DNA of 64,000 nucleotides from Mytilus edulis. Lineage: Eukaryota. The notes beneath the pieces are model-generated. The model made no database searches. It saw nothing but the letters and a program-made list of their open reading frames with translations, and was not told the DNA's origin. Positions 36,080 through 55,701 of this stretch are shown here, piece by piece. The stretch is from assembly GCF_963676685.1 (NCBI RefSeq), contig NC_092355.1:1798001-1862000 (forward strand), read 5' to 3'. Position 1 is the first letter of the stretch; each line of letters starts with the position of its first letter. Position numbers and translations under genes: made by a program.

Positions 36080-36688
36080 TCAAATGTGAGAAAAACGCTT
36101 GGTACTTTTTATATACTTTTGTACAGATAGAAAAACAATATCATTTTCTTCAGAACTCAAAGACTCATCACCAGAGAGCAATAACTCAATTGTAATATTG
36201 ACAGCAAAAACATTGATTTCATTTATCATTAAAAGCCTTTGTGATGAAAAATTGTTACAATATAATAAATAATGTTTAGCATCTTCATTGATGAAGCCAC
36301 ATAAACAATTGGCATCTTGTACTAAGTTTGCATTAAACAAATCAGATTGAAGAGTGCTACAATGGTTTCGCAACCTTGCATGTAATACAGATAGTAAGCG
36401 GTCTCCAGAGCAAAAATGCCTCGGAGGTTTTTTATTCTTATAGTATAACATGTGCAATTTGCTTTTAAATGATGAAAATGTAGGACTCTGTCTAATGATA
36501 ATATCTAAAGTGTTCCACAATGTTATGGATGCTGGGAAATAAGAATGTTGATAAACCGACAAACGATTCACTGGAATAGTGATATTGTGTCTGTTTCGTA
36601 AATTGTAATTACTAATATCAGACACAAATTCTGGAACCAAGTCATGTAAATAATCTGGAGCCTGATTGTTAATAATTTTATAAAACAT
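36080..36688 (-). pseudogene. C-terminal 202 aa of the CR1-type ORF2, cut off by the Polinton
   Basis: MFYKIINNQAPDYL..YNLR..SYFP..WN..HARLR..CLCG..EDAKHYLLYC; joins in frame to ..REVKKLAM of ORF 52807-55701. Confidence 0.9.
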
Positions 36689-36689
36689 G

Positions 36690-37652
36690 AGTAGTATGTA
36701 TATTACTATAGGGTTTTTGAATTTTATAGGGTTTTTACCATATTAGGTAATAACATGATGACATCACATTTTTTCACCTGTCGTACATGTTAACATACAA
36801 ACTATAGCGTTTTCCTTACCTGTTGATTCAAATACTTGAGCGTTTTACAAGATGATGTAATAACATGTTTTACTATCACGTTATACGTAGAAAACTCTCA
36901 AATGTTTGTCATTGTAGTACATGTTAGCATACGGAACCTTTACATGGTATATATGAAAGAGAGAGAAATTACAAAGTAAAAACAAATAATTATAAATTGA
37001 AATAAAATAAGTTAAATTTAAAAAAAAAATAATAATAAAAAAAAAAAAAAAAAAAAAAAAATAATCTAATGTATACACAAATCATTTACAATTTCTATGA
37101 AGATAGAGAAGGGTCTTTTTCCTTGGATTTTTCGTTATTTGGTTAAGAACATGAAGGAACTTTAAGAAATAGCATGTTTGTAACCATTTTCTAATTAGTA
37201 AAACAAATGATATAATCACCTGATCATGTCCAACATATTAAACCCTAAGGCGATACAACTAGAAATAAATGTTTATATCAAAATTAGTTTAGATATTAAA
37301 TGAAGGAAAAATAATCTAATAGTAATTATTAATATACTTTATATAGTTCGAGAAGACATTTTATATAAATAAATATCTGTCTTGTATCATTTAATTTTGC
37401 ACATTTAACTTGTTGTAGCTCGAGAAGAAAGTGTGTATAAATATATATACATATTTCACATTTATTTTGTTTTTATGAATTCAAAGTTTAGAACAGCATA
37501 AAAATAAATATTTCAGATGTCAATATATTTTGGTTGAATACTTGATAAATAAATGCTCTTAGTAAACAGTTTTTTCTTTTTCTTTAACTAACCTTAAATA
37601 CGTCTGTACAGTCCGAGATCCAAGAACGAAATGATTTTAAACAGGAAGTACA
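36690..37652 (+). repeat. Polinton left terminal inverted repeat
   Basis: Near-identical reverse complement of 51869-52828. Confidence 0.95.
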
Positions 37653-38147
37653 TGTACGTCATGTCCTGTACGTAAGTCACAACTTACGTTTCATTTGACC
37701 TCGACAACCCGGAATAGATGACATAAGTCATGTAATAGAAAATCAAGAGAGAAGCATACTTTGATGTCAAAGGATTACGTTTTGTCTGCACAGTGAACCC
37801 GGAAAGTCTGAATCTATGTACGTCATGTCCTGTACGTAAGTCACAAGCTACGTTTTATTTGACTTCGACAACCCGGAATAGATGACATAAGTCATGTAAT
37901 AGAAAATCAAGAGAGAAGCATACTTTGATGTCAAAGGATTACGTTTTGTCTGCACAATGAACCCGGAAAGTCTGAATCTATGTACGTCATGTCCTGTACG
38001 TAAGTCACAAGTTACGTTTTATTTGACCTCGACAACCCGGAATGGATGACATATTAAGTTATGCAATAGAAAATCAGGATAGAAGCATACTTTGATGTCA
38101 AATGCTTACGTTTTGTCGGCAAAGTGAACCCGGAAAGTCTGAATCTA
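37653..38147 (+). repeat. Three tandem ~164-bp units just inside the left TIR
   Basis: Units start at 37653, 37817 and 37981 (TGTACGTCATGTCCTGTACGTAAG...CCGGAAAGTCTGAATCTA). Confidence 0.95.
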
Positions 38148-38368
38148 TTGAGTAATACGGTAAAATTGATACCCGTAAAATCGATCATTAAGCAACTGTG
38201 CAGACAATTTTAGGGTATTATGGAAACATTACGAGTGAAAAAACAACCCATAGATACGGGGAAGCTTCCTCTACGACCAGACAACAATGTCACAAGACAT
38301 AAAACTATGTAATGAACCATGTATATATATCTCTCCGTTCCTACAAAATTATCATTCAACAATTTACC

Positions 38369-38941
38369 ATGAACGGAGACACTTCAAACCACGCTAGAAG
38401 ATGGAGGGTGTCCAAAACAGGCCCATTAGAAGAGGCAATACTTACCATAAAGTTAACAGAAAACAGACGATTGACAATGAAGACCTGGAATGGAGAAATT
38501 CGAGTCGACATACGAGAATGGGAATCCGACCACAAGGCCACCACAAGAGGGGTTAGTTTGTCAGCTATGCGTTGGAAAGTACTGCATGACTTTGCAGAGG
38601 ACATTGACCAGGCCATAGAAAAAATGTCCGGAAAGGAAGAAGTGGACGTCAAAATTCATTTAGGAGGGAACATATACCTTAGCGTAGACCACAGATTCAG
38701 CACTGTAGATATAAGAAAGTTTTGGAGACCTAAAGGAGAAACAGATGCACGACCAACCCGAAAAGGTATAGCGTTAACAACTGAGCAATGGCGTATTGTC
38801 CGAGAATCAATGGAGAAGGTGAATGAAAAAATCCCAGACATCGAAACCATGATACCGTGTTGGATGAGCGAAGACCATCAGAACCAGCTTGGAATGTTGA
38901 GATGTAGTGAATGCAATCCCGACGATTATATGAGCTATTGA
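38369..38941 (+). CDS. Tandem PC4 (Sub1/p15)-domain protein with a C-terminal Cys/His cluster
   Basis: Two PC4-like repeats (RVDIREW..RGVSLSAMRWKVL; TVDIRKFW..PTRKGIALTTEQW) and C-x5-H..CSEC. TATATATA (38322) and Inr-like TCATTC (38352) favour the ATG at 38369. Confidence 0.85.
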   Translation: MNGDTSNHARRWRVSKTGPLEEAILTIKLTENRRLTMKTWNGEIRVDIREWESDHKATTRGVSLSAMRWKVLHDFAEDIDQAIEKMSGKEEVDVKIHLGGNIYLSVDHRFSTVDIRKFWRPKGETDARPTRKGIALTTEQWRIVRESMEKVNEKIPDIETMIPCWMSEDHQNQLGMLRCSECNPDDYMSY

Positions 38942-39007
38942 AGAGATTCGTGGCTCTTTTTTTTATGTGTATCACAAAATAAAATATATAAAGACAATGT
39001 ATGACTT

Positions 39008-39448
39008 TTATTCTTTTATTGCACAAACAAACATAGATACAAACATGTCATTATAATTCAAATCGTCCATCTTGAATATATCGAGTATTCTTTTCATAGA
39101 ATGGTCATTTATCCTCAATACGGCATACACTATACAAAACTCTCAACACTTATTTGAGTTATAATTCTGAAGTCTTCTGGTGTTGTAAGCATATTGTGGT
39201 CCATTTGCAATCATAGTTTCAATAAACGGAGTCATCGGCTTGTTTCCTAGAGAATCGAAAAATTCAACTGGTCCTTGTAACGGAAAATACAACACTGTCC
39301 AATGCTTCCCCGGTTTATCACTTGGATCGGTATTAACAATAAAGAGACTTGGCTTTTTACCGATTTTTGTTGGTATTTCGTCTGCAGCACAGACAACACC
39401 AAAGTTGCAAAACAAGTTCAACAGTGTTCGTATTTGGTTGCTAAACAT
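39008..39448 (-). pseudogene. Adenain-like cysteine protease with one nonsense codon
   Basis: NTDPSDKPGKHW, FFDSLG, LQ..SNKC*EFC. TGA at 39143-39145 replaces the conserved Gly; the frame continues to DLNYND..TAA at 39008. Confidence 0.9.
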
Positions 39449-39449
39449 G

Positions 39450-40703
39450 TCAGATTGTAACGGCCCTTGACTGACTTATTTCAAGAAGCGATGAAAATCT
39501 AGCATACATGATTACTGTTATAGGTTCAGGTAACGGTGTTGCAAACTTCATTTCCACACGAGTTTGTCCCTTTTTCAAGATTGATGTGTCATCGCCGTCT
39601 TGAAAATCTATAACGTACATACAGTAGCCGTGCGTATAGTCGCCACGACTTATGTGTAATGCCGACGTAGTATTAGAGTACAAAGTTTGATACGCTTCTA
39701 CAAAGTTTCCAGCTGCGTAGTTAGGTACGAGGGGTCTTGATGGAAAATTCTGTCCATCAACCATGAAGTTCAAATAGTTGCAGTTGTAATGAAACATTTT
39801 AAACGGGTTTTTCTTGTAACTTCCATTGAACGACTCTGAGCTAACACATGATATGACTAAGGAATTGGGTACATTTCCAAGAAATAAATCTTCGGCACTG
39901 AACGAATAAATCCCGGCTGCTAGGCTATAGGTTTTAATGGTGGACTTCATGTAAGGATACAGTGCGGGGGATGCTTTCAATGCCTCGTTGTGCCCCAGCA
40001 TGATGCCAGAGTTCGGTTTAACTGTACACACCTTGAGATAGGCATCGACTATATGCACTTTGTAGTCAGGATTTGTTTCTGGAGACATGAGACGAAAAGC
40101 ATTCTTATGGGGCCACAGTTTGATCTGAATCGGCACTCCATTAAGGACGAGTCGTTTCTGTTGACACAAGTCCAAAAACAAGGGTCCTTCGTAATCGCAT
40201 ATTCGGCCTGATTGGGTTTCCTTGTATCTCATATATAATCCCGTATTAGGTCCGGATTCCGGATCTGGCTCATCAATGTCTGGTCCTCTGTCCTTATGAA
40301 AACCCCAGGCCGACATTTTACCATTCTGATCGTTTACGTTTGAATTTAAAATCATGTCAAAGTAAGCCTTATATGCATAATTAGTTCCAACATGGTTGAC
40401 GGCTTGGTGTTGGAGACTCATTTCCACTTGAGAAAATATACTGCTTAGAGGCACGTTTACAAGTCCTACCAAATTATCTGCAGTGACGGGAGATCCGTCG
40501 GAAGTTCTCAATTGCAGTTTGATGTGCAGTTTCAAGCGTTCTAAATCAAGATACGAGGTGGACGTGGCCGGTATGTTGAATTCAATGGGAGACTCCTCAA
40601 CGAGCTGATTGATGGGTCTGTATTCGATCCATTCCCGTCCCAGTAATCCAGTGTCCCGGGGTTGTCTATCGAACAAGGCAAGACTTTCACTCAATTTGTC
40701 CAT
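39450..40703 (-). CDS. Polinton major capsid protein (double jelly roll), 417 aa
   Basis: LALFD..WIEYRP..PIEFNIP..YLDL, SIFSQVE, YAYKAY, DLCQQKRLVLNGV, FNGSYKKNPF motifs and position in the element. Confidence 0.9.
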   Translation of the reverse strand: MDKLSESLALFDRQPRDTGLLGREWIEYRPINQLVEESPIEFNIPATSTSYLDLERLKLHIKLQLRTSDGSPVTADNLVGLVNVPLSSIFSQVEMSLQHQAVNHVGTNYAYKAYFDMILNSNVNDQNGKMSAWGFHKDRGPDIDEPDPESGPNTGLYMRYKETQSGRICDYEGPLFLDLCQQKRLVLNGVPIQIKLWPHKNAFRLMSPETNPDYKVHIVDAYLKVCTVKPNSGIMLGHNEALKASPALYPYMKSTIKTYSLAAGIYSFSAEDLFLGNVPNSLVISCVSSESFNGSYKKNPFKMFHYNCNYLNFMVDGQNFPSRPLVPNYAAGNFVEAYQTLYSNTTSALHISRGDYTHGYCMYVIDFQDGDDTSILKKGQTRVEMKFATPLPEPITVIMYARFSSLLEISQSRAVTI

Positions 40704-40754
40704 GGTATGTACAAGAAATATTTATAACAACACGTCTCCCTCTCTTATAGTAGT

Positions 40755-41030
40755 TCATCCATCGAAAACATCGCTAAATTTACGTTTGAGTGTTTTTCTT
40801 TTCAGATTTTTAATTTCTTCTTTGGCCATCTCGACAGCCTGTGCAGTTGGTGACACAATTTTCAGATCGGGTTCAGATGAACCCATTCCTTTCTGGTTGT
40901 CCTTGACGACGTATTGACCAGGGACATGGTTTCCAGACGTCATAGACAAAAAGTAATCCTTGTATTTATTGACGTTTGGTTCGAATGGCACCCAGGTCTT
41001 TGTGTCGTAATCGTAAACGTGTGTGGTCAT
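40755..41030 (-). CDS. Small Polinton protein with a basic tail (putative core protein)
   Basis: Tightly packed between mCP and MCP; QKGMG motif; VSPTAQAVEMAK helix; KRKTLKRK tail. Confidence 0.65.
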   Translation of the reverse strand: MTTHVYDYDTKTWVPFEPNVNKYKDYFLSMTSGNHVPGQYVVKDNQKGMGSSEPDLKIVSPTAQAVEMAKEEIKNLKRKTLKRKFSDVFDG

Positions 41031-41431
41031 ACTTGTTTCAAATGAAGAATGAAGGACACTGTTCCTAGTGCTTTAAATTCGGACAGGTGTTGGTCTCTTA
41101 TAGATATTTTGATGCAACTTAGATCCGATCGCGTAATTGCGAAATAGAAAGAATCCGTAAAGATCCAGTCTTTTTTATACACTGGAATTTCTCTCAGTAC
41201 AGCTAGTGTTTTATCTCCGACAAACGACTCCTCACAGAAATCAACACAAACAAAAACAGAGGTGACGTGCGGGGGAAACGCTATATCCAACGAACACTGT
41301 TTCAGACTGCATTTCCAATGTCCCTGTAAACGGATCGTCTGTGGTAGAGCAACCGTAAACTCTTGTGCATTGTTATGAGGAAAGTAATTCAGAGAGCAAT
41401 CACTCGATAGAAACAGGTAATGCTGGTTCAT
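41027..41431 (-). CDS. Minor capsid (penton) protein, compact 134 aa
   Basis: N-terminal YLFLSS..YFPHN..FTVALP..LQGHWKCSL and C-terminal IKISIRD..FILHLK, typical of Polinton mCP. Confidence 0.8.
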   Translation of the reverse strand: MNQHYLFLSSDCSLNYFPHNNAQEFTVALPQTIRLQGHWKCSLKQCSLDIAFPPHVTSVFVCVDFCEESFVGDKTLAVLREIPVYKKDWIFTDSFYFAITRSDLSCIKISIRDQHLSEFKALGTVSFILHLKQV

Positions 41432-41467
41432 TGCTGTTAATGGGGAAGTGTGTGGGTTTCGTTTTTC

Positions 41468-42570
41468 TTATACAAATTCCTTCACCTCACTCTCGAGAAT
41501 CCAAGAGTCGAATTTTTTAGGCCAATGCAACCACCTCACAAGCACTTCTTTCCTACCCCGGTATTTTCGTCGCTTGATAATTCGTTCCACTTTATATCGT
41601 GTGTTCTCATCCACCTTAACTCTTTGCAATTCTGGAAAATAATAGGTACCTTCTATCTCGTCGCCGAGCCAGTCTGTTAATCGGTATACCGGCGTATTGT
41701 CACGTCTGTAGCGGGACTGTATCTTAAATATTTCTCCAGTAAATCGTTGTTGGTATTCTCTCTCGAAGGTGCCCTCAAGTAAGTCAAACGGACCAGATCT
41801 CCGATTTTGAACATGTATTTTCTTTTTGCAACTCGTTTTTCCTTGTGGTACTTGGTGCGAATCAAATATTGTTGAAGTCTTACTTCGTCTTCGTTATCGT
41901 TGCCGACCTCCGAGGGTGACGTTCCTAGTGATCTATGGGTTGTATGGTTGTAGCTGTCAACGAGTGAATCTAAAACCAACCTGTATGATTTATTCTGGTT
42001 TTCTGAAATGTAGCGGTAAATTTTCATCTTCAGCGTTTTCTGTACCCTTTCTGCATAGGACGCCTTGACCTCGTTTTGAGTCAGGATGTGCTTGATGTTT
42101 TTGCCACGACAGAAGCGTTGGAAATTTCCGTTCGTGAACTCCGAACCCTTGTCTGTCCTCAAAACATTCGGAGTCCGACCGTTGCCGACAATTGATTCTA
42201 GAGCTCTTGTAACTTCGGAGCCGGTTTTCTGTTTCAGTAATCGACAATTCACAAATCTAGAAAAAATGTCAATGGTTACCAATCCATATCTGAAGCCCTG
42301 ATTGTCTTTTTGCAGGGAGGAGAGATCCATTAAATCGGCATCCCACTGACTGTCTATTCCGTCTACAACCACCCTATTTCTCCGGAATCGTCGACGTACT
42401 TGTCGGGTCAAGGTGTAAGCATCCTGTCCTTGTAACCATTGTCGTATGTGATACTTGCTGATGTCGTATTGTCCCTGACTTTTTGCAAAGTCGTACAGCT
42501 TTTCGACCCCCGAGAAAGACGCCGGACTTTTCGGATCGTAATAGATCGTTTTTAAATAGTCTTCCCACAT
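41468..42570 (-). pseudogene. Retroviral-like integrase with C-terminal chromodomain (one frameshift)
   Basis: YYDPKSPASFSG, WDADL, IDIFSR, TDKGSEF, AER. After a shift at ~41772 the frame reads FEREYQQRFTGEIF..YKVERIIKRR..VLVRWLHWPKKFDSWI to TAA at 41468. Confidence 0.92.
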
Positions 42571-42602
42571 GATTGATGTGTTGTGTATTTAACCCCCACT
42601 TC

Positions 42603-43130
42603 TTATAAATCACACAACAGCTCTAACTCCATTAACGTCGGATAAACATGATACTCTATATCTCTTTGGTCTTTCACCCCGGAGATCACCACCTTACCGG
42701 AATGAAAGCAAGTAAATCGCACGTGTCCCCTCGAAACGATAGCGCCAGGGAACAATTCCGGTTCATAATTTGCGGCAAAGGTATTCTTCAAGAGATTCAA
42801 ACGGAGGTGTCCGTTAAGACTGTGTGTCAACGACATGGTTAGTATCTTGACGTCGTGGAAGTTCACTGGCCATCCGTGTCTCTGAATCTGTCTTGCGTAT
42901 CGTCTCAATCTCAGCCTGGCTTCTTTTTCATCGAGGACAGCACCGTTGCAAACAATTTTCCCTCGCGCGTAAACCAAGCAGTTTCCTCCTATCTTTTTGT
43001 GTTTCCAGATAACCACATTGTGACGTTTCGCATCATACCTTACATTACACATGACCTTTTGCGTTAAGACAAGGAGGTCGATTGGACACCCGAGCTCCGC
43101 CGAACAGACGATGTTACTGACATGGATCAT
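42603..43130 (-). CDS. Divergent TATA-box-binding protein (TBP core, two repeats, 175 aa)
   Basis: SNIVCSAELGCPIDL, YDAKRH, GKIVCNGA, RRYARQIQRHG, NYEPELFPG and FHSGKVVISG align colinearly with the TBP core. First ATG is at 43130; the track start is a TTG. Confidence 0.93.
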   Translation of the reverse strand: MIHVSNIVCSAELGCPIDLLVLTQKVMCNVRYDAKRHNVVIWKHKKIGGNCLVYARGKIVCNGAVLDEKEARLRLRRYARQIQRHGWPVNFHDVKILTMSLTHSLNGHLRLNLLKNTFAANYEPELFPGAIVSRGHVRFTCFHSGKVVISGVKDQRDIEYHVYPTLMELELLCDL

Positions 43131-43165
43131 GGCTATCGTCTGGTTCAAACTTCTCAGTATTAGTG

Positions 43166-43177
43166 TTTATATAAGAG
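43166..43177. promoter_or_regulatory. Bidirectional TATA element between the TBP and ATPase genes
   Basis: TTTATATAAGAG reads TATATAAA toward TBP (ATG 43130) and TATATAAG/TATAAGAG toward the ATPase (ATG 43213), centred in an 82-bp gap. Confidence 0.75.
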
Positions 43178-43212
43178 CGACACACCGTACAGAGTACCTT
43201 TCTGTCTACATC

Positions 43213-43866
43213 ATGAAAACGCTTGTACCATTCGAAATGTGCAGTAGTATGATTATATCTGGAGCGACGGGAAGTGGGAAAAGTACCTGGATATACAATT
43301 TTTTGCAAAATATCGACGACATGTATACAGACCAAAGTCCGGAGAAGGTACTGTACTGCTATGGGATCTACCAAGACCTGTTTATAGACATGGAAAGAAA
43401 TTGTCCGAGATTATCGTTCCATCAAGGAATACCTACGCGAGAGGAGATAGAAGATTTCACCGCCAATGGCAAACATAATCTGATCGTGTTGGACGACCTC
43501 ATGCACGTGGTCGTGGACAATGCCGAAATGGAATTGCTTTTCACTCAGGGGTGTCATCACAGGAAGCTCTCTGTGATATTTGTCACCCAGCAACTATTTT
43601 ATCAGGGTAAGAAAGCACGGACCATTGCCCTCAATACATGGTACATGGTGCTACTAAAGAACTTACGGAACGTGGCCCAGGTTTCCACCCTGGGACGTCA
43701 ACTGTTTCCGGGGAAAGGTAACGCCTTAGCGAATGCTTATCAAGATTGTCTGAAAACGCCATATGGTTATTTAGTTGTAGATATGGCGCCGAATACAAAC
43801 GATCTATATCGACTCCGGACCAACGTTTTCCCGGGAGAGGACCCCCTCATTTATTCCGCATTATAA
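43213..43866 (+). CDS. A32/FtsK-like genome packaging ATPase
   Basis: Walker A GATGSGKS, Walker B LIVLDD, HHRKLSVIFVTQ, PYGYLVVD. Real start is probably the ATG at 43213. Confidence 0.93.
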   Translation: MKTLVPFEMCSSMIISGATGSGKSTWIYNFLQNIDDMYTDQSPEKVLYCYGIYQDLFIDMERNCPRLSFHQGIPTREEIEDFTANGKHNLIVLDDLMHVVVDNAEMELLFTQGCHHRKLSVIFVTQQLFYQGKKARTIALNTWYMVLLKNLRNVAQVSTLGRQLFPGKGNALANAYQDCLKTPYGYLVVDMAPNTNDLYRLRTNVFPGEDPLIYSAL

Positions 43867-43901
43867 GAGGAATCTTTGTGACTGTGTATGTTTTGGAAAG
43901 T

Positions 43902-44216
43902 ATGAGCGATACCATTACAAAAAACGGCAGTTTCCTGAAGTTCTTTTTAACGGCAAACACGCTTCAGAAAAAAGTCATGTTACAGAATGTATCGCTTCAA
44001 CAGACCAAAGCCCTGTCGGAAATAGCGGTCAATTTGCTAAACGATACAGTTGATTTGCCAGCCCAAACGAAAATGCAACTCAAAAGATATAAGAAGGTAT
44101 ATCGGTTAATAGGCAGCAGACGAACGAGCTTGAAAAACAAACAGAACGTTTTAAGGTCCTCCTATCGTGCCATCACATTAATGTTGCAAGGGTTCTGGTC
44201 TCATCTTGGATTATGA
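43902..44216 (+). CDS. Conserved small basic Polinton protein (PW/PM-type; name uncertain)
   Basis: ALSEIAVNLL..LKRYKKVYRLIG..SLKNKQ pattern; TATAAGAG 40 bp upstream of the ATG. Confidence 0.7.
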   Translation: MSDTITKNGSFLKFFLTANTLQKKVMLQNVSLQQTKALSEIAVNLLNDTVDLPAQTKMQLKRYKKVYRLIGSRRTSLKNKQNVLRSSYRAITLMLQGFWSHLGL

Positions 44217-44632
44217 GTTCCGTACAGAAGGACGTTTTGATACCGTACGACAGATACCAGCAGTTAATCAAAAGATCTACCAAATATCAAATTCAATCGG
44301 GCCAGGGACAACGTTTAGAGGAAAGGTCCATTGTAGACGCCATTCCGACTGATCAGACCCATCGCGCCCAGGAGATTTTACGACTCATTCGGGACAGTCC
44401 AGAACAACCCTTGAACTGGAATGAAAACGGAGAAATCATTTACAGGGGGACATTGAAACGGGGATCGAGCATCACGAAACTTTTAAGACATCTAGTGAGT
44501 GGATCTAAAACAACCAAACCTATTGGACAACGAGAATTCCTCAAGAGTCTGAAAGAAATGGGCGTCACTGTTAGTTTGATAACCCAATCGATCCCAAGAC
44601 CACCGGGAAAGCGAAAATGGATGACCTTATAA
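44213..44632 (+). CDS. Conserved Polinton protein (PZ-type; name uncertain)
   Basis: VLIPYDRY, WNENGEIIYRG..GSSITKLL, PIGQREFLKSL. Confidence 0.75.
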   Translation: MSSVQKDVLIPYDRYQQLIKRSTKYQIQSGQGQRLEERSIVDAIPTDQTHRAQEILRLIRDSPEQPLNWNENGEIIYRGTLKRGSSITKLLRHLVSGSKTTKPIGQREFLKSLKEMGVTVSLITQSIPRPPGKRKWMTL

Positions 44633-44667
44633 GAGTGGTGAGGGCCTGTATTCATCATTTCCACAGA

Positions 44668-45048
44668 ATGGAGGATTACGAGAGAGTGGAACGGGACTTC
44701 AAATTGCATTTCAATGTCATAAAAATTATTGGTGTTCTGTTAATGCTATACAGTACGGTGATAACGATTTTGTTGGGAATAAACGTGAAGCCTGGCGGTG
44801 TTTCAATGGACTGTACCTTACGTTTAAGAAATAGCAAAGGCTGTCAGCCCAGAGACCAGTTTCCACTGACAAACGGTGCATATGTGACTGTGTGTACAAG
44901 AAGAGGCGTGGACATAAGACATTATATAAACGACAAAGTTCCAGCAGAGGGTGTGCACCTGAATCAAAGACAGTGGGTTTATTTGAAACGTTCAATGGCT
45001 CACATCGATCGTGCCATATCGACGGGAAACAATACCTCAACCCTGTGA
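44668..45048 (+). CDS. Transmembrane-anchored PC4-like protein
   Basis: Hydrophobic IIGVLLMLYSTVITILLGINV followed by FPLTNGAYVTV..VDIRHY..GVHLNQRQWVYLK..IDRAI (PC4 pattern). Confidence 0.7.
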   Translation: MEDYERVERDFKLHFNVIKIIGVLLMLYSTVITILLGINVKPGGVSMDCTLRLRNSKGCQPRDQFPLTNGAYVTVCTRRGVDIRHYINDKVPAEGVHLNQRQWVYLKRSMAHIDRAISTGNNTSTL

Positions 45049-45214
45049 TTTTTTTTTTTTTTTTTTTTTTTTTTCTCATATGAAAAAAGGAGAGACGAGA
45101 TGTATTTATGTACCATACATGTTTAGTTTTTTTTAGCTGTACCATTATTAAAGAATAGAAAACGAGGTGTTCATTTTGTATTATCGCACAAATAAATAAA
45201 AACACAGAGTTTAT

Positions 45215-48200
45215 TCAAAATCCGTACGGAATCGTCGTCATGTCATCCTTGACGACTCTCTTCGTATATACCACTTGGTATTTCTTTGATTGTTCTCTGT
45301 TGTAGATAAGGGACATTGGCCGATTCCTGACGATCTTTGTCTTGTCCACGAGCTCGATCTTCCTCTTCTTTGTGGATGGTTCTTCGTCCTCGTTCGGAGA
45401 GAACAACAGGCCCTTGATGGCGTCGAAATTGACGAGTTTTGAATTCTCGTAATTCAACGAGAATCCACGGACCTTGCATACTTCCTGACCATCGGATCTT
45501 CTGTAGGCGTAATTTTTGGGGCCACCGCTAACGAATTCCTCGATGTAGTGTCCCTCCAATTCGTCGGTCAATTCTCCGAGGTAATCTCCCAGTGATAATG
45601 TCTGTGCATTCCGCCTTTCGATATAGATGACGGAATCTGTGTCGTGGTACAACACATTTTCTTTCAACTGGTCGAGAACATCGTACAACTTCAGACGGGC
45701 CCAGGATGTCGTGAAAGTGGCCAAGAAGATGTTCGTCTTCGTGTCTTCGTCAACGAAGTCGTTCACGTGAATCCACGATACCTGGACGATGTGGTCGTTG
45801 ACGATTTCAAAATTTAAAACTTGTTTCGTTGGATCGGTAAGCATCTGAAAAAATTCATCCATCTGGTTATCGTAAAAAAACATCACTTGTGTCAAGTTCA
45901 GTCTTTGGCCGAATTTGCCCCAGAACGAATTGAGACAAAGCTTGGCCACAGCACGCAGTCCTGGGTTTTTCTCTATGGCATCCCAGTCCAGACGAACCCC
46001 CTCTTTCTGGAAATAACTTTCGATGTACGTCTTCTTTTGATCCGTAGTCCTACACCAGGCGGGAAAGTCGGACGCTTCCTGTTTGTATTTTAGAAAAGTG
46101 TTGATATAGCGAGCAAACAGTCCTCCGTCATTGGTCTCGTGGTCGTACATTGTAGTTTCCGGCCAGTGATATACTTCATACATTTTCACCACGGTGTATC
46201 CCTTTTCCATTGCTTTCATGATTTCGGGAGTGGTCCAGGTTCCAAGCAAACACCTCTGTTCGTCTGTGTGTTGACAAGGTGATTTAGACTCCTGGTCGGC
46301 ACATGTTTTACACAGCGGGAATTTCAATTTGCCCTGGTTTTTATACGGCAGAACTGGAAAAAACAGTTTTCTTGGAGGCAACATTTTTACCAGAGCGATA
46401 CCGAAGTAATCCTTCATCTCACTGAAATCGCTGTGAATAATATCTGGATGACCCACGGGGTACCGACACGTCTTGTTCGTCCAAGGGTATAGGCTCGTGA
46501 AATCGACGTATCGTATGAACTCCCCATCGGTTACCTCGTGATGCAGCCGGATTGCATTGGTTCTTCCACCATAGAAGCTATCTCGAGCATCCAAAGGTGG
46601 CTGTAAATCGAGGGAATTGACGAACCGTCTCATTTGTTCGTTTTCTTTCAGTTTCGATTGGAAATCGTGCTCCCAGATCGACACGTATTTGTAACCGGCA
46701 TTTTCGATGGTCTGCTTTCTGATTTTGGTCAGGTAATACAATTCTATCATCGTCTGCCTCGTCCCTGGAAGTCTGGTCTTGTCCCGTTCGTTCGGCATAC
46801 AGACTGGACACCCGTGCCACCTGCAGCCTAAAAACTCGTATACAGTATTGGTCTCTCTGCAATACCCATCGAAACGAATCCGTCGGCTGGGAAGACTGAC
46901 TTCACCACCATTCAAAGCGTGTTGGATCTTTTCCAGCTTTCCCTGTTTCTTGTTCTTTTCCATCACCCATTCCAACCATTCAATGCTCTCTTTACTGTAG
47001 TTGTCCAATCTTCGGTATCCTGCAGCCGGAATCAGAGCAATGGGCGATTTCACGAACTCGCGTTCGTGTTCTCGTATGCTCATCTCTTGGAGATCTGCAT
47101 GCGAGTACCATCTGTCTTCGTATCGAACGTCTATGTCGGACAGGTAGGTGTGCCATCCCAGGGATTTCTTTACTCTGACGTCCTCGTCGCCTTGGTGTTT
47201 TCTACATTCAACCACAAGATTGTGTGTGTGCAAGAGATCTTTTGGACTCAACCATCTATCGACGTACCATACTTCTCCATGTCCGTTGACCCATCGTGTC
47301 GGCAATGCGAGATCTGTGTTGGTTACTTAATGAACTCGGTGTTCCTCTTGAAGAAAACAGGTTCTAAATATGGTCATACACATACTGGCAATCGTCACAG
47401 AGTCGAAGGCATCCACGTCATTGTTTGTCTGTGTAAAGATCAACTCACGGAACTTTAAACAGGCCTTCCTCGGGATGGTTACGTCGTCACGACAGTAAGC
47501 CTCGATCTCTTTTGCAAAGTCAAATATGGCACCCTTTGATTTCTTTTCCTTGTACCATTTCAAGAAGTCGTGTCTATTTTCAACGTTCATGCTGTTCATG
47601 CCGTAGTCCTGCGGAGCTGGATATTCACCAATGTAGTTTTGATTTTCAATCGTGTTGAAAAATGAGGGAAGTAACCTTTCCTGATTTCCTCGTCTTCTGC
47701 TGTCAGGGAGAACGTTTTCGGCAGTTTTTTCAACGACATTGGTAAAAAATTCAGAGAGTCGACCAGTCTGATATGTAGCCCCTTGCCGACGTACATGCTC
47801 ATTATCTTGGAGCCGTTGTATATAATGTGTGTCGGTGTCATGCAGTTGTCCACCAGATACCTCAGGATGAAGGTGCCGTCGTATCCTTGTAGGTTGTGGG
47901 CAACGACTTTAGCTCCGAAATGTTTTTCTTGAAATAGCCAACGTCCGAAATGAACCGCTGACTCATATCCCTTGAAAACCATTTCTCGGTTGCCACAGGT
48001 GTCGGCACAAGGTGACCTGATGTACGACCCTTCTTTCTTCTTTTCACATTTCGTGCACCTGGTGCCACAGTTTTTGCACCGGACCTCGATCGGCTTCTCC
48101 TGACAGGCACTACAGCTAGTATGGGCGACTACAAAGTTGGGTTTGTGCTGGTTTCGTCCACACCAGTCCGTACTGCAATGTTGGCAGACTCTGCTTCCTT

Positions 48201-51092
48201 CTTTCGGCATGTAATTTTCCCTGCACTGCACTGGTGACGACTGGTCACATTCGAAGTCAAAAAAGATGAAAAATTTGTCTTTTATTTCCTTCTTTAGACT
48301 CCTCATGTAACACCTGTGGTTTCCGAAGACGACCTCAGTACAATTTTTACAGGTCCACTCGCCGCACTCGTGGGGATTTTCCAGCAAGTTTCTGTTTCTC
48401 CGGTCGACTGTTTTATGGCACTTGATGCAACGCCAATACTTGGAACATTCAGATAGACTGTCTCTGGCGTTCAGCGTTTGACGTTTCCCCTTCTCCTCTG
48501 GTGTCAACTTGTGGTACTGGAAACACTCCATAGAACGACATTCCATACGGCAGGACCTGCAAGATACAGGATCATCCATCACCACACATTCGTCACTTCG
48601 CTTACAAATTAAGCAGGGTCCACCACATGCATGCTTTGCGACGTTACTGTACGGTTTCAGACATTTCATACAAAAGTAGTTGTTTGAAAAGAAACCGGTT
48701 ATCGTATTGATGGCGTGGAAATGGTTGCCGTCCACCAGATAAAGAAAGATACATGGTCTGTCCGACTGTGCTCCTATTCGACAGAATCTGTTGCCTAACG
48801 CTGAATCGATGACGAGTATTCGAAGGTGTAAAACGTCTTCGAATACTGAGATGTCTGTGATGGTACAGGGTCGGTCCAGTGGCAAACCTACTTTACTTGT
48901 TAGGGCAGCTGCCAACTCCCTCTGTTCTCTGCTATTCTTTTTTCGTAGATTTTCGTAGTGGGTTGACGGCATCTTCCCCGTGTCTAATATCAGTTGCAAA
49001 TTAGACCTTCCTTTCCTTTCTTTCGTTATTTTCCGCCATTCTCCTCGAGGACAGACATTCTGCTTGGCCCAACAGACAGCGATGGCCCTGGCAAGACATA
49101 AATTGTCATCGTTTACAATTTCCACGATGGCTTTTTTTCTGGACAGCGAATTGTTATCTCCTCTCAGCTGTGTAAAATGTAATCTTTTACCCCCTTTAGG
49201 GATATCGATGACACCCACGTCTATTCTGAAGTCCACGTTTAAGGCCAGTTCTTGGTGACTGTTTAGAACTTTCATCACGTACTCCAGGACACAGGAGGGT
49301 GTCAGCTCACCAATAGGTCTTAATGAAACGACTATGGGTTCCACGTCTGGATGTTGGATGACCACTCTACCCAGGTCTTTCGTATCCATTCCTCGGGTCG
49401 CCTCACGAATGACGTCTTCAAACATTTTCATGAGGTTAGCATGAATATCTAACAGACGCTGGCCCCTCCATTTCTCATTAAATGTAACCCCGTATACATT
49501 TTCCATCGCCTTGTTTTTAAATGTCTTCGACGATTTTAGGTGTATTTCATAAGCGTCTTCGTCCCCGCACCCTTCTTGTTGAGACGTGTCGTGGCTAAGC
49601 GGGGAGCTCGATGGCACTGCTTCGTCCCCGCACCCTTCTTGTTGAGACGTGTCGTGGCTAAAATGGGAGGTCGATGGCACTGCTTCGTCAGGAGTACCTC
49701 TTTCTTTTGCATGTTCTTCTTTGTGCTTCACTAGATCTTCGTTCTTTTTGAATCGTGCGAAACAAACACTGCATTGGACTGTTTTCCCGCCTGTCTTCGG
49801 TTTACCTATACCACAAAATAAAATAAATCTGTTGTAAGTTATCGTTTATCAATTACTGTTCATTCAGAAAATATTTATTAATCAATTTTAGACTTAAATA
49901 CGATTTTTATCTTAACATTTTTCAGAAACATCCTGTTTGATGCACATTAAATTTTTCAAAATTATACGGGTTTCAAATATTGCTTCTACCACTCTTTCCC
50001 ATTTAAAAAAAATATAGTCTTTGAAGGCCGTACGGTGACCTATAGAAACAATTACAATTAGACTGTAATCAACTTACCACTTTTATTATCCATTTTTTCT
50101 TCAATACTTTGGGCACATTGGTATAGCAAAGTGTTTTCTCCCTCATCTGGAAAAAAGAACTTAGAATTAAAATACATGTAATCTTACTCCCAACAATGAT
50201 GCATTACGTTTTAATACATGTATTCGTATTCTATAAGATATGTCTCTATGTATAATACGTATTTGCTAAAATTTATTATTTTCAGAAAAATCCTGTTTGA
50301 TGCACATTAAATATTTTAAAATACGGGTTTCAATTATTGCCACTACCACTCTTTCCCCATTAAAAAAATATAGTCTTTGAAGAAAAGAAAAACATTGTGT
50401 ATGTTACCTTCAGTAAACAAACAATTACAATTAGACTGTAATCAACTTACCACTTTCATTATCCATTTTTTCTTCAACACTTTGGGCACATTGGTATAAC
50501 AGAGTGTTTTCTTCCTCATCTGAAAAAAAAGAATTTAGAATTAAAGTAAATGTAATCTTACTCCCAACAATGATACATTACGTTTTAATACATGTATTCG
50601 TATTCAATAAGATATGTCTCTATGTACATGTATAATACGTATTTGCTAAAATTTATATAATTGTAGGAGCATACTTCATTTGCATAATTTAAGATGATAG
50701 GGATAACAAAGAAAAGAAACTCACCAAATAAGATTTCCATTTCTGCGTCTTTCATCCTTGAACAATAATCACAGTGTATCTTTAAGTGTTCCTTACATCT
50801 AAAAGCAAACACATTTAAAGTTATTAAAGACATACACTCTAAATTAAGATTATAAACGCAATGGTTCTAAAAATAAATAAATGTTTGTACTTTAACATTT
50901 ATAATATATATACTAGACTTGCATGATTTTTTTTAATTATTTTTCACACAAATTATTTTGTTACTAGACATTACTTTATTTTAAAAAAAATGTGCAAAAA
51001 TTGAAAAACATTTAAAAAAATACTTACATATTGCTTTCTATGTACTCGGCATCGGCAAACAATTGATCGTTATCTTCAGGGGAAAAATCCAT
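45215..51092 (-). pseudogene. polB: Protein-primed family B DNA polymerase polyprotein, spliced (exons 51092-51028, 50798-50725, 50519-50451, 50146-50078, 49805-45215); one frameshift and one stop
   Basis: C2H2 finger; vOTU-like DNLCLARA..NHFHAI; exonuclease FFDFE / AHNLQGYD / YCRDDV; VSR-like DGY..YEFLGCRWHGC; polymerase DFTSLYP, KLCLNSFWGKFGQ, YHDTDS. Frameshift at ~47660 and TAA at 47327-47329. Confidence 0.92.
49915..50657. repeat. ~365-bp tandem duplication containing one 69-nt PolB exon per unit
   Basis: TTCAGAAA.ATCCTGTTTGATGCACATTAAA at 49921 and 50281; exons at 50078-50146 and 50451-50519. Confidence 0.9.
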
Positions 51093-51868
51093 TGGTTTTT
51101 TTTCTTGTTCGTGAATAAATTGAACGTTATCGGTTGATTCGAATTCTGTTGTAGAATTTTGAGAGTTTTGAATATAATTCTAACTTATATAGGTGATATT
51201 ACAGAAGAAAGGTGACATTATGATTAATGATTTCTTTGCTATAGAAGCATAATTACAACACAAAGAGAGATCAAATACATGCCGATAGGAACAGTATACG
51301 GTCAAATAAAGTACAATTTGTGACAAACGTCCAGAAAATGACTTACATGTTCTTCCTGTTTAAGATCATTTCATATTTGTATTCGGATTGTACGACAGAA
51401 TATATTGTTAGTCTTTTATTTACAGAAATGATATTAACAAACGTGTGTTTAGTCTAATATTATTTTTTTTCCATGTTCAAATCTTGAATTTTCTTACGGG
51501 TTCATACAATTTGAAAAAAAAATGTTAAAAGAAACATATATTTTATATAAACCTTCTTTTTGAAGGTATACACATTTATTTTGTGTATTTATTTTGACAT
51601 TTAGTGCTATGTAAATATATTTATATTCTTTTTTCATTTTATATCCAAATTAATTTTGAGAAATACTTTTTCTTGACTTGTACATGTATAGCCTAAAGGT
51701 TAAAATTGTTACACTTTATCCTGGGATTATATTCTTTGGTTCTCTAATTAGCTAATTGGTAATGTAACAACCATGTCATTACATCTTCTTACAGTACTTT
51801 CGTGTATTTGACCAAAAATCCAGACCCACAAACCTCCTTTTCTATCTATAAAGAACATATTAATCATC

Positions 51869-52828
51869 TGTACTTCCTGTTTAAAATCATTTCGTTCTTG
51901 GATCTCGGACTGTGCAGACGTATTTAAGGTTAGTTAAAGAAAAAAAAATGTTTACTAAGAGCATTTATTTATCAAGTATTCAACCAAAATATTTTGACAT
52001 CTGAAATATTTATTTTTATGCTGTTCTAAACTTTGAATTCATAAAATCAAAAAAAATGTGAAATATGTATATATATTTATATACACTTTCTTCTCGAGCT
52101 ACAACAAGTTAAATGTGCAAAATTAAATGATACAAGACAGATATTTATTTATATAAAATGTCTTCTCGAACTATATAAAGTATATTAATAATAACTATTA
52201 GATTATTTTTCCTTCATTTAATATCTAAACTAATTTTGATATAAACATTTTTTTCTAGTTGTATCGCCTTAGGGTTTAATATGTTAGACATGATCAGGTG
52301 ATTATATCATTTGTTTTACTAATTAGAAAATTGTTACAAACATGCTATTTCTTAAAGTTCCTTCATGTTCTTAACCAAATAACGAAAAATCCAAGGAAAA
52401 AGACCCTTCTCTATCTTCATAGAAATTGTAAATGATTTGTGTATACATTAGATTATTTTTTTTTTTTTTTTTTTTTTTTTTATTATTATTTTTTTTTTAA
52501 ATTTAACTTATTTTATTTCAATTTATAATTATTTGTTTTTACTTTGTAATTTCTCTCTCTTTCATATATACCATGTAAAGGTTCCGTATGCTAACATGTA
52601 CTACAATGACAAACATTTGAGAGTTTTCTACGTATAACGTGATAGTAAAACATGTTATTACATCATCTTGTAAAACGCTCAAGTATTTGAATCAACAGGT
52701 AAGGAAAACGCTATAGTTTGTATGTTAACATGTACGACAGGTGAAAAAATGTGATGTCATCATGTTATTACCTAATATGGTAAAAACCCTATAAAATTCA
52801 AAAACCCTATAGTAATATACATACTACT
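51869..52828 (-). repeat. Polinton right terminal inverted repeat
   Basis: Reverse complement of 36690-37652; ends in ACTACT. Confidence 0.95.
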
Positions 52829-55701
52829 AACATGGCTAACTTTTTTACCTCCCGCCTTACGCTTAATTTTTCCCATCCCGTCTCCCTGTAAATAGCGTTT
52901 CGTCTAGCATAACTTGGTAATCCAGTAACTACGCGAGCAGCCTCGATTTGAATATTTTCTATCCGATCAGAATTTGTGTTCCCACAATTATCCCAAACTT
53001 CTGATGAATACTCAAGTATCGGACGAATAAAAACCATATAAATTTTTTCCAAATAATCCCTTTTTAATCGATATTTTAGTTTGCGTAAAACATTAAGCTG
53101 CTTCGTAGTTTTCTCAATCAGTTTATCAACATGCTTATTCCATTTACAATCATTACTAAATATGACACCTAGGTGTTTGTGCGCACTAACTGGTTTCAAT
53201 GTAGCACCTCCAAAATCAAAAGTAATATCACTGTATATATTTTTCAAACTAAATACCATAATATCAGTTTTATTAGGGTTAAACTTCACTAGCCATTTTT
53301 CTGACCACTTACTTAAATAATCAAGATCTCTACTGATTGAATTTTTCAAAGTGGATTCATCAGGTGCAGTATGACCTATTGAAGTATCATCTGCAAAAAG
53401 CCTTCCGAATCCAGACATACCACCAGCTATATCATTTATGTATATTAAAAACAACAAGGGTCCTAATACTGACCCCTGAGGCACACCAGCGTTAAGTTTT
53501 CCAATGTTTGATAACGAATCTTTTATGACAACTCTCTGAGATTGTCTAGACAAGTAACTTGTCAACCAACATAGCAAGTCTCCTTTAATACCATATTTTT
53601 CAAGTTTATGTAATAAAGCCTTAATCCAAACAGTATCAAATGCTTTGCTTATATCAGCAAATGTAATGCTTGTTAAAAGCTTTTCATTTAGTGCACTCGA
53701 AATTTTGTTATACAATTCTATTAACTGATGCGAAGTTGAGTATCCTGGAATAAATCCGGATTGATACTTGTATAATAATTTATTTCCATGTAAATGGTTA
53801 AAAATATTTTTGAAAACAATCTTTTCTAAGACTTTACTCACACATGACAATAAGGAGACTGGCCTGTAGTTAGACGGTAATGACTTGTCACCACTTTTGA
53901 ATAAGGGAATAACATGTGCAATCTTCCATTGGTCTGGAAATATTTTGTCATTTAAAGATTTGTTAAAAAGTAGACATAATGGTTTGGAAATTTCATTTTT
54001 AACGGCAAGTAACATTCTGTTGCTAACGATATCTGGCCCAACAGCTTTATTAACATCGAGCGTTGAAAGAATATCAAGTACATCTTGTTCACTAACTACA
54101 ATTTGTGAAATAAATTCAAGACATCGGTCGTCAAATTCCGGCAAATCTTTACTTGCGCCATCTAAATTAGAAATTGAACAAAAATATTTATTTAAAATGT
54201 CGGACTTTTCGGTTCCCTCATACGCAAGTTTAAAGTTGTGATCAAGGTCCGTCATGGGTGGTAAATCATGAGACGGTGTATCACTTTTAATTAACATGTT
54301 AACCGTTTTCCAGTATTGTTTACAGTTGGTAACTTTTAGTTCATCTAAATTTTCATTAATACTGGTAAAAAAATATTTTTTAGCTTGCTTTTTCAAGTTA
54401 TTTACTTTGTTTCTTTGTTGTTTAAATTTCTTTTCTGCGGATGCACTATTTGAGCGAATAAAAATATTACGAAGCCTGTCGCGTTTTCTCAATTCACGCC
54501 GCAAATTTGAATCATACCAAACTTTATCGTCACATCTTATAGTTACTTCCCTTGTAGGTATGCACTCGGAGGCTATATTAAGAAATGAGTTCGTGAAATT
54601 AGTCGCAGCAACATGAACATCACTTGCATCAGAAATTAAAAATTCCCAATTTGTTTCAACTACTTTTTGTTTCATAAGGTCATAATCACCTTTTTTGTAA
54701 TCCCATATCGATCTATTATAAGTTCGTCTTTTACTAAAACAACAATTAATTGTGACGTATGTTCCATCATGATCACTAATACCTCTATCAAAAGGTATTG
54801 TGTCTTTATCTAAAACCGGTATCGAATCAGTGACTAAAATAGGATCAAGTAAAGACGTGCTACCTGTTCGTGTGTCAAAATGAGTAGCTTTGTCAATTAT
54901 GTTAACAAGGCCATTGATGAAAAAAATATCTCTTATATTTGACGGTAGATCTGACATAAAGTTTTTATTCAGGTCACCTAAGCAAATTATGTTATTATTT
55001 TCATCCATGGCATTTTTCAACATTTGATCAAAATACTGCCAGAAATAAACTGAAGATTGCCGTTCCGACCTATAATTGATGTTTATCAATATTGATCGCA
55101 ATTTAGTTTTTAACTCAAACCACATACTCTCAAGTTGGCAATTCTCCAAATCATGTCGACGAGTTATGCGAACGTAACTTTTATAATACATAATAATGCC
55201 ACCCCCATGAGAATTTCTTTCTTTTCGAACTGGTATTTCAAAACCGGATATATATAAATCAGAATCTGTAATATTTGAGTCTAAATGGGTTTCTGTCAAG
55301 AATACGACATCGTAATCTTCAATAATATCGACAATATAATTCAGTTTATTTCTAAGGCTTCTTATATTACCATGGAAAATTGACAATGTTTTCTCAGATA
55401 TTTCTGGTGTGCGCTCAGGACCCGGGTTCGGTTCGATGTCACCACATATTAGCAACAACCATAATAACAGTATGTACAATGAAATCATATAAGCAGAAGA
55501 TCTGTATAAATTAAAAATACATAGTTTGAGTCTTGAAATATGCGTAAATAAAACGGCAAGTAATTCATACACTGAGAAAGATACAAATGTTTTTCTCAAA
55601 CAACCCAGACTTATCTTGTGATAAAACAGTCCTATTGTCATTCTATATGCTACGATGTCATTACCCATTGTCAAATACAAGACAATACATGTAAATGACA
55701 A
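52829..55701 (-). pseudogene. CR1-type ORF2 (2A-like peptide, APE and RT), N-terminal 957 aa
   Basis: CGDIEPNPGP, NIRSL, LTETHL, GDLN, SDH, GPD, NYRPVSLL, DISKAFD, GVPQGSVLGP, FADD. Confidence 0.93.

Follow-up and report, generated by a model that had tools for sequence, protein, structure and literature searches.

A TBP-encoding Maverick element of Mytilus edulis, its recurrent TATAAGAR box and a divergent spacer with overlapping TATA boxes

A Maverick element with a TBP-like gene

The window analysed here is a stretch of 64,000 nucleotides of the Mytilus edulis genome (contig NC_092355.1, positions 1,798,001 to 1,862,000), and all coordinates below are positions within it. Within it, a gene for a short TATA-binding protein (TBP) paralogue and a gene for a packaging ATPase diverge from a short spacer, and both genes belong to a Maverick/Polinton element (Table 1). 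The element is a Maverick by its terminal inverted repeats (TIRs) with AG-repeat ends, the arms of which (36690-37652 and 51869-52828) are 96-100% identical, by its 6-bp target-site duplication (TSD), AACATG, which flanks both sides, by a protein-primed DNA polymerase B (pPolB) and by an rve integrase. It encodes a PC4-like protein, protease-like and capsid-like proteins, the integrase, the TBP-like protein, the ATPase, three small open reading frames (ORFs) and the pPolB, which lies in three pieces.

The TIRs, the 6-bp TSD, the pPolB and the rve integrase are shared with the Mavericks, Polintons and adintoviruses described previously (Starrett et al. 2021; PMC8502044, in excerpt), and the putative ATPase, capsid-like and protease-like genes would be shared as well. 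In that paper, a gene 'similar to TATA binding proteins' is among the labels in the legend of Figure 5, which concerns MELD viruses with adinto-like PolB. Unlike the present analysis, the text of the paper, in the same excerpts, contains neither a promoter motif (the word 'promoter' gives 0 matches) nor a role for the TBP. In the Polinton literature searched, as freely accessible text, a TBP-like gene was mentioned in this legend alone and a promoter motif nowhere.

Pfam gave no matches for the capsid-like and protease-like ORFs, which owe their labels to their size, to their place in the element and to homologous ORFs elsewhere among the Maverick families; homologues of the capsid-like ORF were present in every Maverick family that was read. 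A longer ATPase ORF begins at 43051 and overlaps the TBP gene, but alignments with homologues begin at about residue 2-5 of the protein that starts at 43213, which makes the latter position the likely start. Because the pPolB is in three pieces and the integrase and protease are shortened, we consider this copy to be decaying, with its TBP gene and boxes intact. The element lies in a LINE-like reverse transcriptase ORF. This LINE-type endonuclease/reverse transcriptase ORF is otherwise open and is split by the element into two parts (36080-36688 and 52807-55668); the interruption, together with the TIR identity of 96-100%, indicates a recent insertion.

Table 1. Features of the element and its surroundings, in window coordinates
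Feature	Position	Strand	Details
Whole Maverick/Polinton element	36690-52828		16.1 kb; TIRs of ~1 kb; AGTAGT...ACTACT ends; 6-bp TSD AACATG
PC4-like transcriptional coactivator	38312-38941	+	PF02229, E=3e-20
Canonical TATATATA box	38322-38329	+	47 nt to likely PC4 start (38370)
Protease-like ORF	39143-39448		101 aa (about 160 aa in relatives)
Major capsid protein-like ORF	39450-40703	-	417 aa; labelled by position, size and homologues
TATAAGAG box	40742-40749	-	46 nt to major capsid ATG (40703)
TATAAGAG box	41095-41102	-	72 nt to 91-aa ORF (41030); within upstream coding region
TATAAGAA box	41465-41472	-	41 nt to 134-aa ORF (41431)
rve integrase	41677-42570	-	297 aa (368 aa in relatives); PF00665, E=1.5e-12
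TATAAGAA box	42600-42607	-	37 nt to integrase ATG (42570); includes TBP stop codon
TBP-like gene (short TBP paralogue)	42603-43130	-	175 aa; PF00352, E=5e-26
Spacer from which the TBP-like and packaging ATPase genes diverge	43131-43212		82 bp
Canonical TATATAAA box	43166-43173	-	43 nt to TBP ATG; putative early promoter
Second canonical box, TATATAAG	43168-43175	+	45 nt to ATPase ATG; overlaps TATAAGAG on the same strand
TATAAGAG late-type box	43170-43177	+	43 nt to ATPase ATG
A32/FtsK-like packaging ATPase	43213-43866	+	217 aa; Pox_A32, E=1e-4, just under cut-off
TATAAGAG box	43862-43869	+	40 nt to 104-aa ORF (43902); includes ATPase stop codon
TATAAGAG box	44628-44635	+	40 nt to ATG 44668 (126-aa ORF); includes stop of 139-aa ORF
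Protein-primed PolB	45215-49506	-	three ORF pieces, PF03175 on all three

A TATAAGAR box upstream of seven genes

We noted that the sequence TATAAGAR stands before seven genes of the element, namely those for the major capsid-like protein (MCP), a putative minor capsid protein (the 134-aa ORF, so labelled by its position), the integrase, the ATPase and three small ORFs, at a distance of 37-46 nt from the ATG and, at one site, of 72 nt. The heptamer TATAAGA is the top heptamer of the element in a de novo count and occurs nine times in the 11.6-kb core, where 1.26 occurrences were expected and at most four were obtained across 300 simulations. The boxes ahead of the TBP and PC4 genes are canonical TATA boxes and not TATAAGAR.

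Does the motif arise merely from stop codons, or mark the 3' end of the gene upstream? Three of the seven sites include the TAA stop codon of the ORF before them, but four are without one, and TBP-less elements, described below, lack the motif. Moreover, past the last gene of both gene blocks AATAAA is present and the motif is absent. Because the motif also stands in the head-to-head spacer, where it has no co-oriented gene upstream, and is missing from the 3' ends of the blocks, we deduced that it is not a 3'-end signal. The spacer is the best single argument for the motif as a promoter and against a 3' signal; that site largely refutes the explanation by stop codons or 3' ends, which we regard as highly improbable.

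Measured from base 1, the distance from box to ATG across families is 33-48 nt, and the late boxes sit about 10 nt nearer to the ATG than canonical boxes do. If transcription starts 30 nt downstream of the box, the late leaders would therefore be only about 3-18 nt long, shorter than with the canonical boxes (about 40-63 nt).

The box accompanies a single TBP-carrying clade

There are many Maverick families in the genome, and only 14 TBP matches were obtained from all 27 candidates scored; these fall in two multi-exon loci, which are probably host genes, and in a few elements. The TBP-carrying elements form one clade in the trees of the ATPase and the MCP (100/99 and 100/100, respectively). 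In this clade, 21 of 48 core genes have TAAGAR 20-75 nt ahead of their ATG (2.8 expected by shuffle), a count that includes the window element and its C6 relative, on which the motif was first defined, whereas in families of the same genome classed as TBP-less by genome-wide searches rather than by whole-element reading it precedes one gene of 66 (5.1 expected). The other 27 core genes of the clade are without TAAGAR in the tested range. On their own strand, the TBP genes are never preceded by it (0/11), and neither are the genes for the protease (0/5) and the 139-aa ORF (0/4), both of which abut the gene upstream.

The clade set comprised 15 loci, namely the window element, L015, L022, L044, L045 and ten of 16 loci of the metagenome family. 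L044 and L045 are decayed, have no TBP match nearby and were placed in the clade by kinship; L018 was dropped as a copy, and the metagenome loci L065 (canonical TBP) and L067-L078 (31-34% identity) were excluded. For the TBP-less set, 10 kb of 17 loci was read and 12 loci were used after the near copies L032, L033, L043, L047 and L049 had been dropped.

De novo heptamer counts gave a similar picture. ATAAGAG was the top heptamer in both the C6 family (11 occurrences versus 0.95 expected) and the C2 family (9 versus 1.09), and was enriched in L051 (6 versus 0.85); CATAAGA was in excess in L060-L062 (8 versus 1.0) and GTAAGAA in the MOX loci (18 versus 4.2; 10 versus 2.2 in L054 alone). An excess of this kind was absent from the ten TBP-less loci examined. 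Base 1 of the box in the relatives is C, G or A, and G at base 6 is strict in every family. Because the TBP-carrying elements are a single clade, the co-occurrence of motif and TBP amounts to one evolutionary event. Because TATAAGAG is element-wide and tied to TBP-carrying elements, the element TBP is its likely reader.

In the TBP-less Mavericks (L030-L043 and L047-L049), the genes for the integrase, capsids, protease and ATPase have overlapping or abutting stop and start codons and no box for each gene, and this tight packing suggests a different expression strategy.

We also considered a reader supplied by another virus. Baculovirus transcription starts within a TAAG motif, and variants of the late element have A, G or T as the base before TAAG. 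The box might likewise be a TAAG initiator for the RNA polymerase of a helper virus, with the start inside the motif and the element TBP otherwise employed. The ATAAG/GTAAG core, which stands ahead of structural genes in both systems, fits the baculovirus late element, but the latter is read by a viral RNA polymerase (PMC4893493, in excerpt), which is missing from the element, no candidate helper virus was identified, and the AG or AA after TAAG is conserved here. Leaders of 30-46 nt would replace those of 3-18 nt, and the very short leaders that a TBP reader leaves unexplained keep this alternative alive; yet in families that are less decayed the distance to the ATG does not fall below about 31 nt. 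Adintovirus DNA has come from baculovirus-infected insect cells (PMC8502044, in excerpt), but the restriction of the motif to the TBP clade would be unexpected for a helper polymerase, as would a base 2 that changes along with the TBP residues known to read it (see below). We regard such a helper-dependent initiator as unlikely.

The element TBP and its relatives

The element TBP contains two Pfam PF00352 stretches and, in its AlphaFold model (pLDDT 93.7), forms a two-repeat saddle, with a TM score of 0.90 to human TBP and of 0.81-0.92 to solved TBPs. It retains the fold and the stirrup (YEPELF) and is about 33-35% identical to cellular TBP. It belongs to a short-TBP family of at least 90 sequences, taken from clusters at 50% identity, that forms a branch separate from the canonical TBPs (100 local support). 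Its closest named relative is that of the pearl oyster, Pinctada imbricata (51%). Viral contigs were scanned with three queries (the TBP itself, a TBP alignment and a capsid alignment), and no relatives were obtained.

Like cellular TBP and TRF, the family has the two-repeat saddle, and its intercalating aromatics are mostly retained; N69, F116, F190, F207 and E188 are kept in most members (numbered as in yeast, by way of the range matched to 1rm1 and of the alignment gaps). Unlike them, it branches on its own, lacks the N-terminal tail and has a family-wide change of M104 to W. Further changes affect the centre of the DNA-binding face: against 49 canonical TBPs, N159 is replaced by T in 78 of 89 sequences, V161 by S or T in 86 of 89 and T124 by N or H in 56 of 86, and L205 is mostly polar. 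The DNA-contact set that is invariant in canonical cellular TBP (F99, F116, F190, F207, N69, N159, V161, T124, T215 and L205) is not intact in the element TBP, which has H37, Y54, T98, S100, N62, S150 and T140 in place of F99, F116, N159, V161, T124, T215 and L205, respectively.

Might the box be related to particular residues of the protein? In the MOX group, whose box is CGTAAGAA, all seven complete TBP sequences carry I194V/V203T/L205S, and L063 and the ATAAGAG families are without these changes. In yeast TBPm3, it is these residues (194, 203 and 205) that determine base 2; an A to G change at base 2 abolishes binding by wild-type TBP, and yeast TBP with I194F/V203T/L205V accepts G there (PMC1636458, in excerpt). 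Residues 203 and 205 are variable in all members of the short-TBP family, and the covariation, as one event at variable positions, is suggestive only. A second candidate covariation, P191 to N with C at base 1 (L060-L062), was rejected because base-1 C also occurs with P191.

These observations bear on whether TATAAGAG might be a weak TATA box for the host TBP, the element TBP being a decoy, a dosage booster or a protein with a non-promoter role. All seven sites of the window element begin with TATA, and TATAAGAG is presumably the G(-26) variant of the adenovirus box. A crystal structure exists for wild-type TBP on this G(-26) variant (title of PDB 1qn5), but a G at base 6 (TATATGAA) gave weak output in yeast (PMC2396422, in excerpt), and its strict conservation in every family would be unexpected if the boxes were merely weak. 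Base 1 is C, G or A in the relatives, moreover, and the base-2 G of one group is not specifically bound by wild-type TBP (PMC1636458, in excerpt), so that we consider a weak host box quite unlikely.

A proposed two-stage programme

The best explanation, and in our view a probable one, is that an element TBP whose early expression is driven by host TBP switches on the late genes through the NATAAGAR box. The early genes, TBP and PC4, would be read by host TBP at their canonical TATA boxes. The element TBP would then recognise the non-canonical 8-bp NATAAGAR (TATAAGAR in the window element), about 33-48 nt before the starts of the genes for the capsid, the ATPase, the integrase and accessory proteins; once bound, it would recruit the host Pol II machinery. 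At the spacer, the TBP gene's early box and the ATPase gene's late box lie on opposite strands with 4 bp in common, and occupancy of the late box could damp the TBP gene.

By analogy, the system most likely works like the late system of beta- and gammaherpesviruses without being a member of it. In these viruses, TBP mimics (KSHV ORF24, EBV BcRF1 and HCMV UL87) act at TATT late promoters (PMC4893493 and PMC12529657, in excerpt). Both systems would have a virus-encoded TBP fold expressed early and a TATA variant ahead of late structural genes; in the element, the non-canonical box lies at seven sites, structural genes included, and is absent before TBP genes. Polar substitutions at T124, V161, L205 and T215 are also common to both, those of KSHV ORF24 being T124N, V161N, L205S and T215S (PMC12529657, in excerpt). 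In contrast, the herpesvirus protein is large and multidomain, with about 10% identity, and is described, for ORF24, as incompatible with TFIIB binding, whereas the element TBP is a stand-alone core of 175 aa with about 33-35% identity that keeps its YEPELF stirrup; the box is TATT there and NATAAGAR here, and the host here is a 16-kb integrating element. None of the five partner proteins (sought by Pfam) was found in the element, and its TBP is not a protein of ORF24 size with a Pol II-binding domain.

A broader proposal, which we put forward as possible but doubtful, is that a clade of animal Mavericks has a private promoter code of one protein: a captured TBP would have been re-tuned to NATAAGAR, box and protein would have co-evolved (CGTAAGAA with V203T/L205S), an early-to-late cascade would operate within a 16-kb element, and here a single 12-bp site would both end the early phase and start packaging. 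If the two-stage programme is true, it would be a convergent, minimal counterpart of the TATT/vTBP system found in herpesviruses, with the short-TBP family as a natural set of TBPs of altered specificity. A defined box and an element-encoded reader make the timing of Maverick virion genes, with or without a helper virus, directly testable, and such a test needs only short DNA and one small protein.

The divergent spacer

A preliminary description of this locus placed one bidirectional TATA element in an 82-bp gap between two diverging ATGs, about 41-43 bp from each. The gap is indeed 82 bp, and TATATAAA (leftwards) and TATAAGAG (rightwards) each lie 43 nt from their ATG, within TTTATATAAGAG at 43166-43177. 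A rightward canonical box, TATATAAG, which begins at 43168, had been overlooked; it is present because the core of the spacer, TTATATAA (43167-43174), is palindromic. Neither box is separated from its start codon by another ATG; the single minus-strand ATG, at 43211, lies farther upstream than the leftward box. When the spacer was shuffled 100,000 times, TATAWAWR overlapped on the two strands in 0.5% of cases. The overlap is real, but rather than a single bidirectional element the evidence favours two promoter classes, canonical early and TAAGAG late. The TATATAAA and TATAAGAG 8-mers have 4 bp in common, and with an 8-bp TBP footprint simultaneous occupancy would therefore be implausible, in agreement with the original suggestion that a single TBP could be bound at a time.

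No second copy of the spacer region was found in a DNA search of the genome (39 of 585 candidates scored), and no contig crossed the spacer among 26 of 29 pieces from 4 of 22 runs, the RNA origin of three of these runs being a guess. One RNA contig, with a depth of 2.2, spans 42703-42914 in the TBP gene; because such contigs do not reveal transcription starts, we base no conclusion on them.

The same description went further and proposed a feedback switch, in which element TBP bound in the rightward orientation silences its own gene and activates the ATPase. As a selected negative-feedback device this is sterically plausible: the boxes overlap by 4 bp, each exactly 43 nt from its ATG, and a canonical reverse TATA occurs at only one of the seven promoter-position motif sites, the sole one facing a divergent gene, with a chance of about 4.5% given a TATAAGAG. 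Conservation of the switch was not borne out when the spacer was sought in related elements, the check that had been suggested, because a head-to-head ATPase is present in none of 17 relatives. These relatives, from about seven lineages, each have 400 or more bases of sequence on the 5' side of the TBP gene; four more had too little flank, and the three closest TBPs (51-58%), which lack genomic context, fell outside the comparison. In L051, L054, C6/C10 and C2, where both genes were mapped, the ATPase lies 4.5-6 kb beyond the TBP start, and the TBP gene of the relatives is usually followed by the integrase and preceded by a co-oriented gene. Because TATATAAG also faces the ATPase and is among the strongest boxes in a yeast extract assay (PMC2396422, in excerpt), host TBP could fire either way; TBP alone orients weakly, and its partners set direction (PMC1636458, in excerpt). 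The arrangement is thus lineage-specific, a functional feedback at this spacer can be advanced only tentatively, and that it was selected as a switch seems to us rather doubtful.

Further features of the elements

The PC4 promoters of L052 (about 230) and L054 (1252) are TATATATAAGAG, a compound canonical-plus-late box like that on the ATPase side of the spacer. Upstream of PC4, the window (37652-38148) has three tandem repeats of 164-167 bp with TACGTCA (CRE-like) and CATG-centred motifs, which are likely to be a host-signal enhancer for the early genes; related elements have an excess of TGACGTCA (L051) or CACGTG (MOX loci). At both convergent junctions (38978-39020 and 45191-45215), AATAAA signals stand back to back, which suggests nested, 3'-coterminal transcripts for each gene block. 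The 126-aa ORF (44668-45048) looks by eye like a second, divergent PC4-type protein, with no Pfam matches. In other TBP-carrying Mavericks of the genome, the TBP gene is preceded by ORFs (1998-2796 in L003/L004 and 1992-2264 in L002) that we take, from the look of their sequences, to be death-fold/CARD-like and macro-domain-like.
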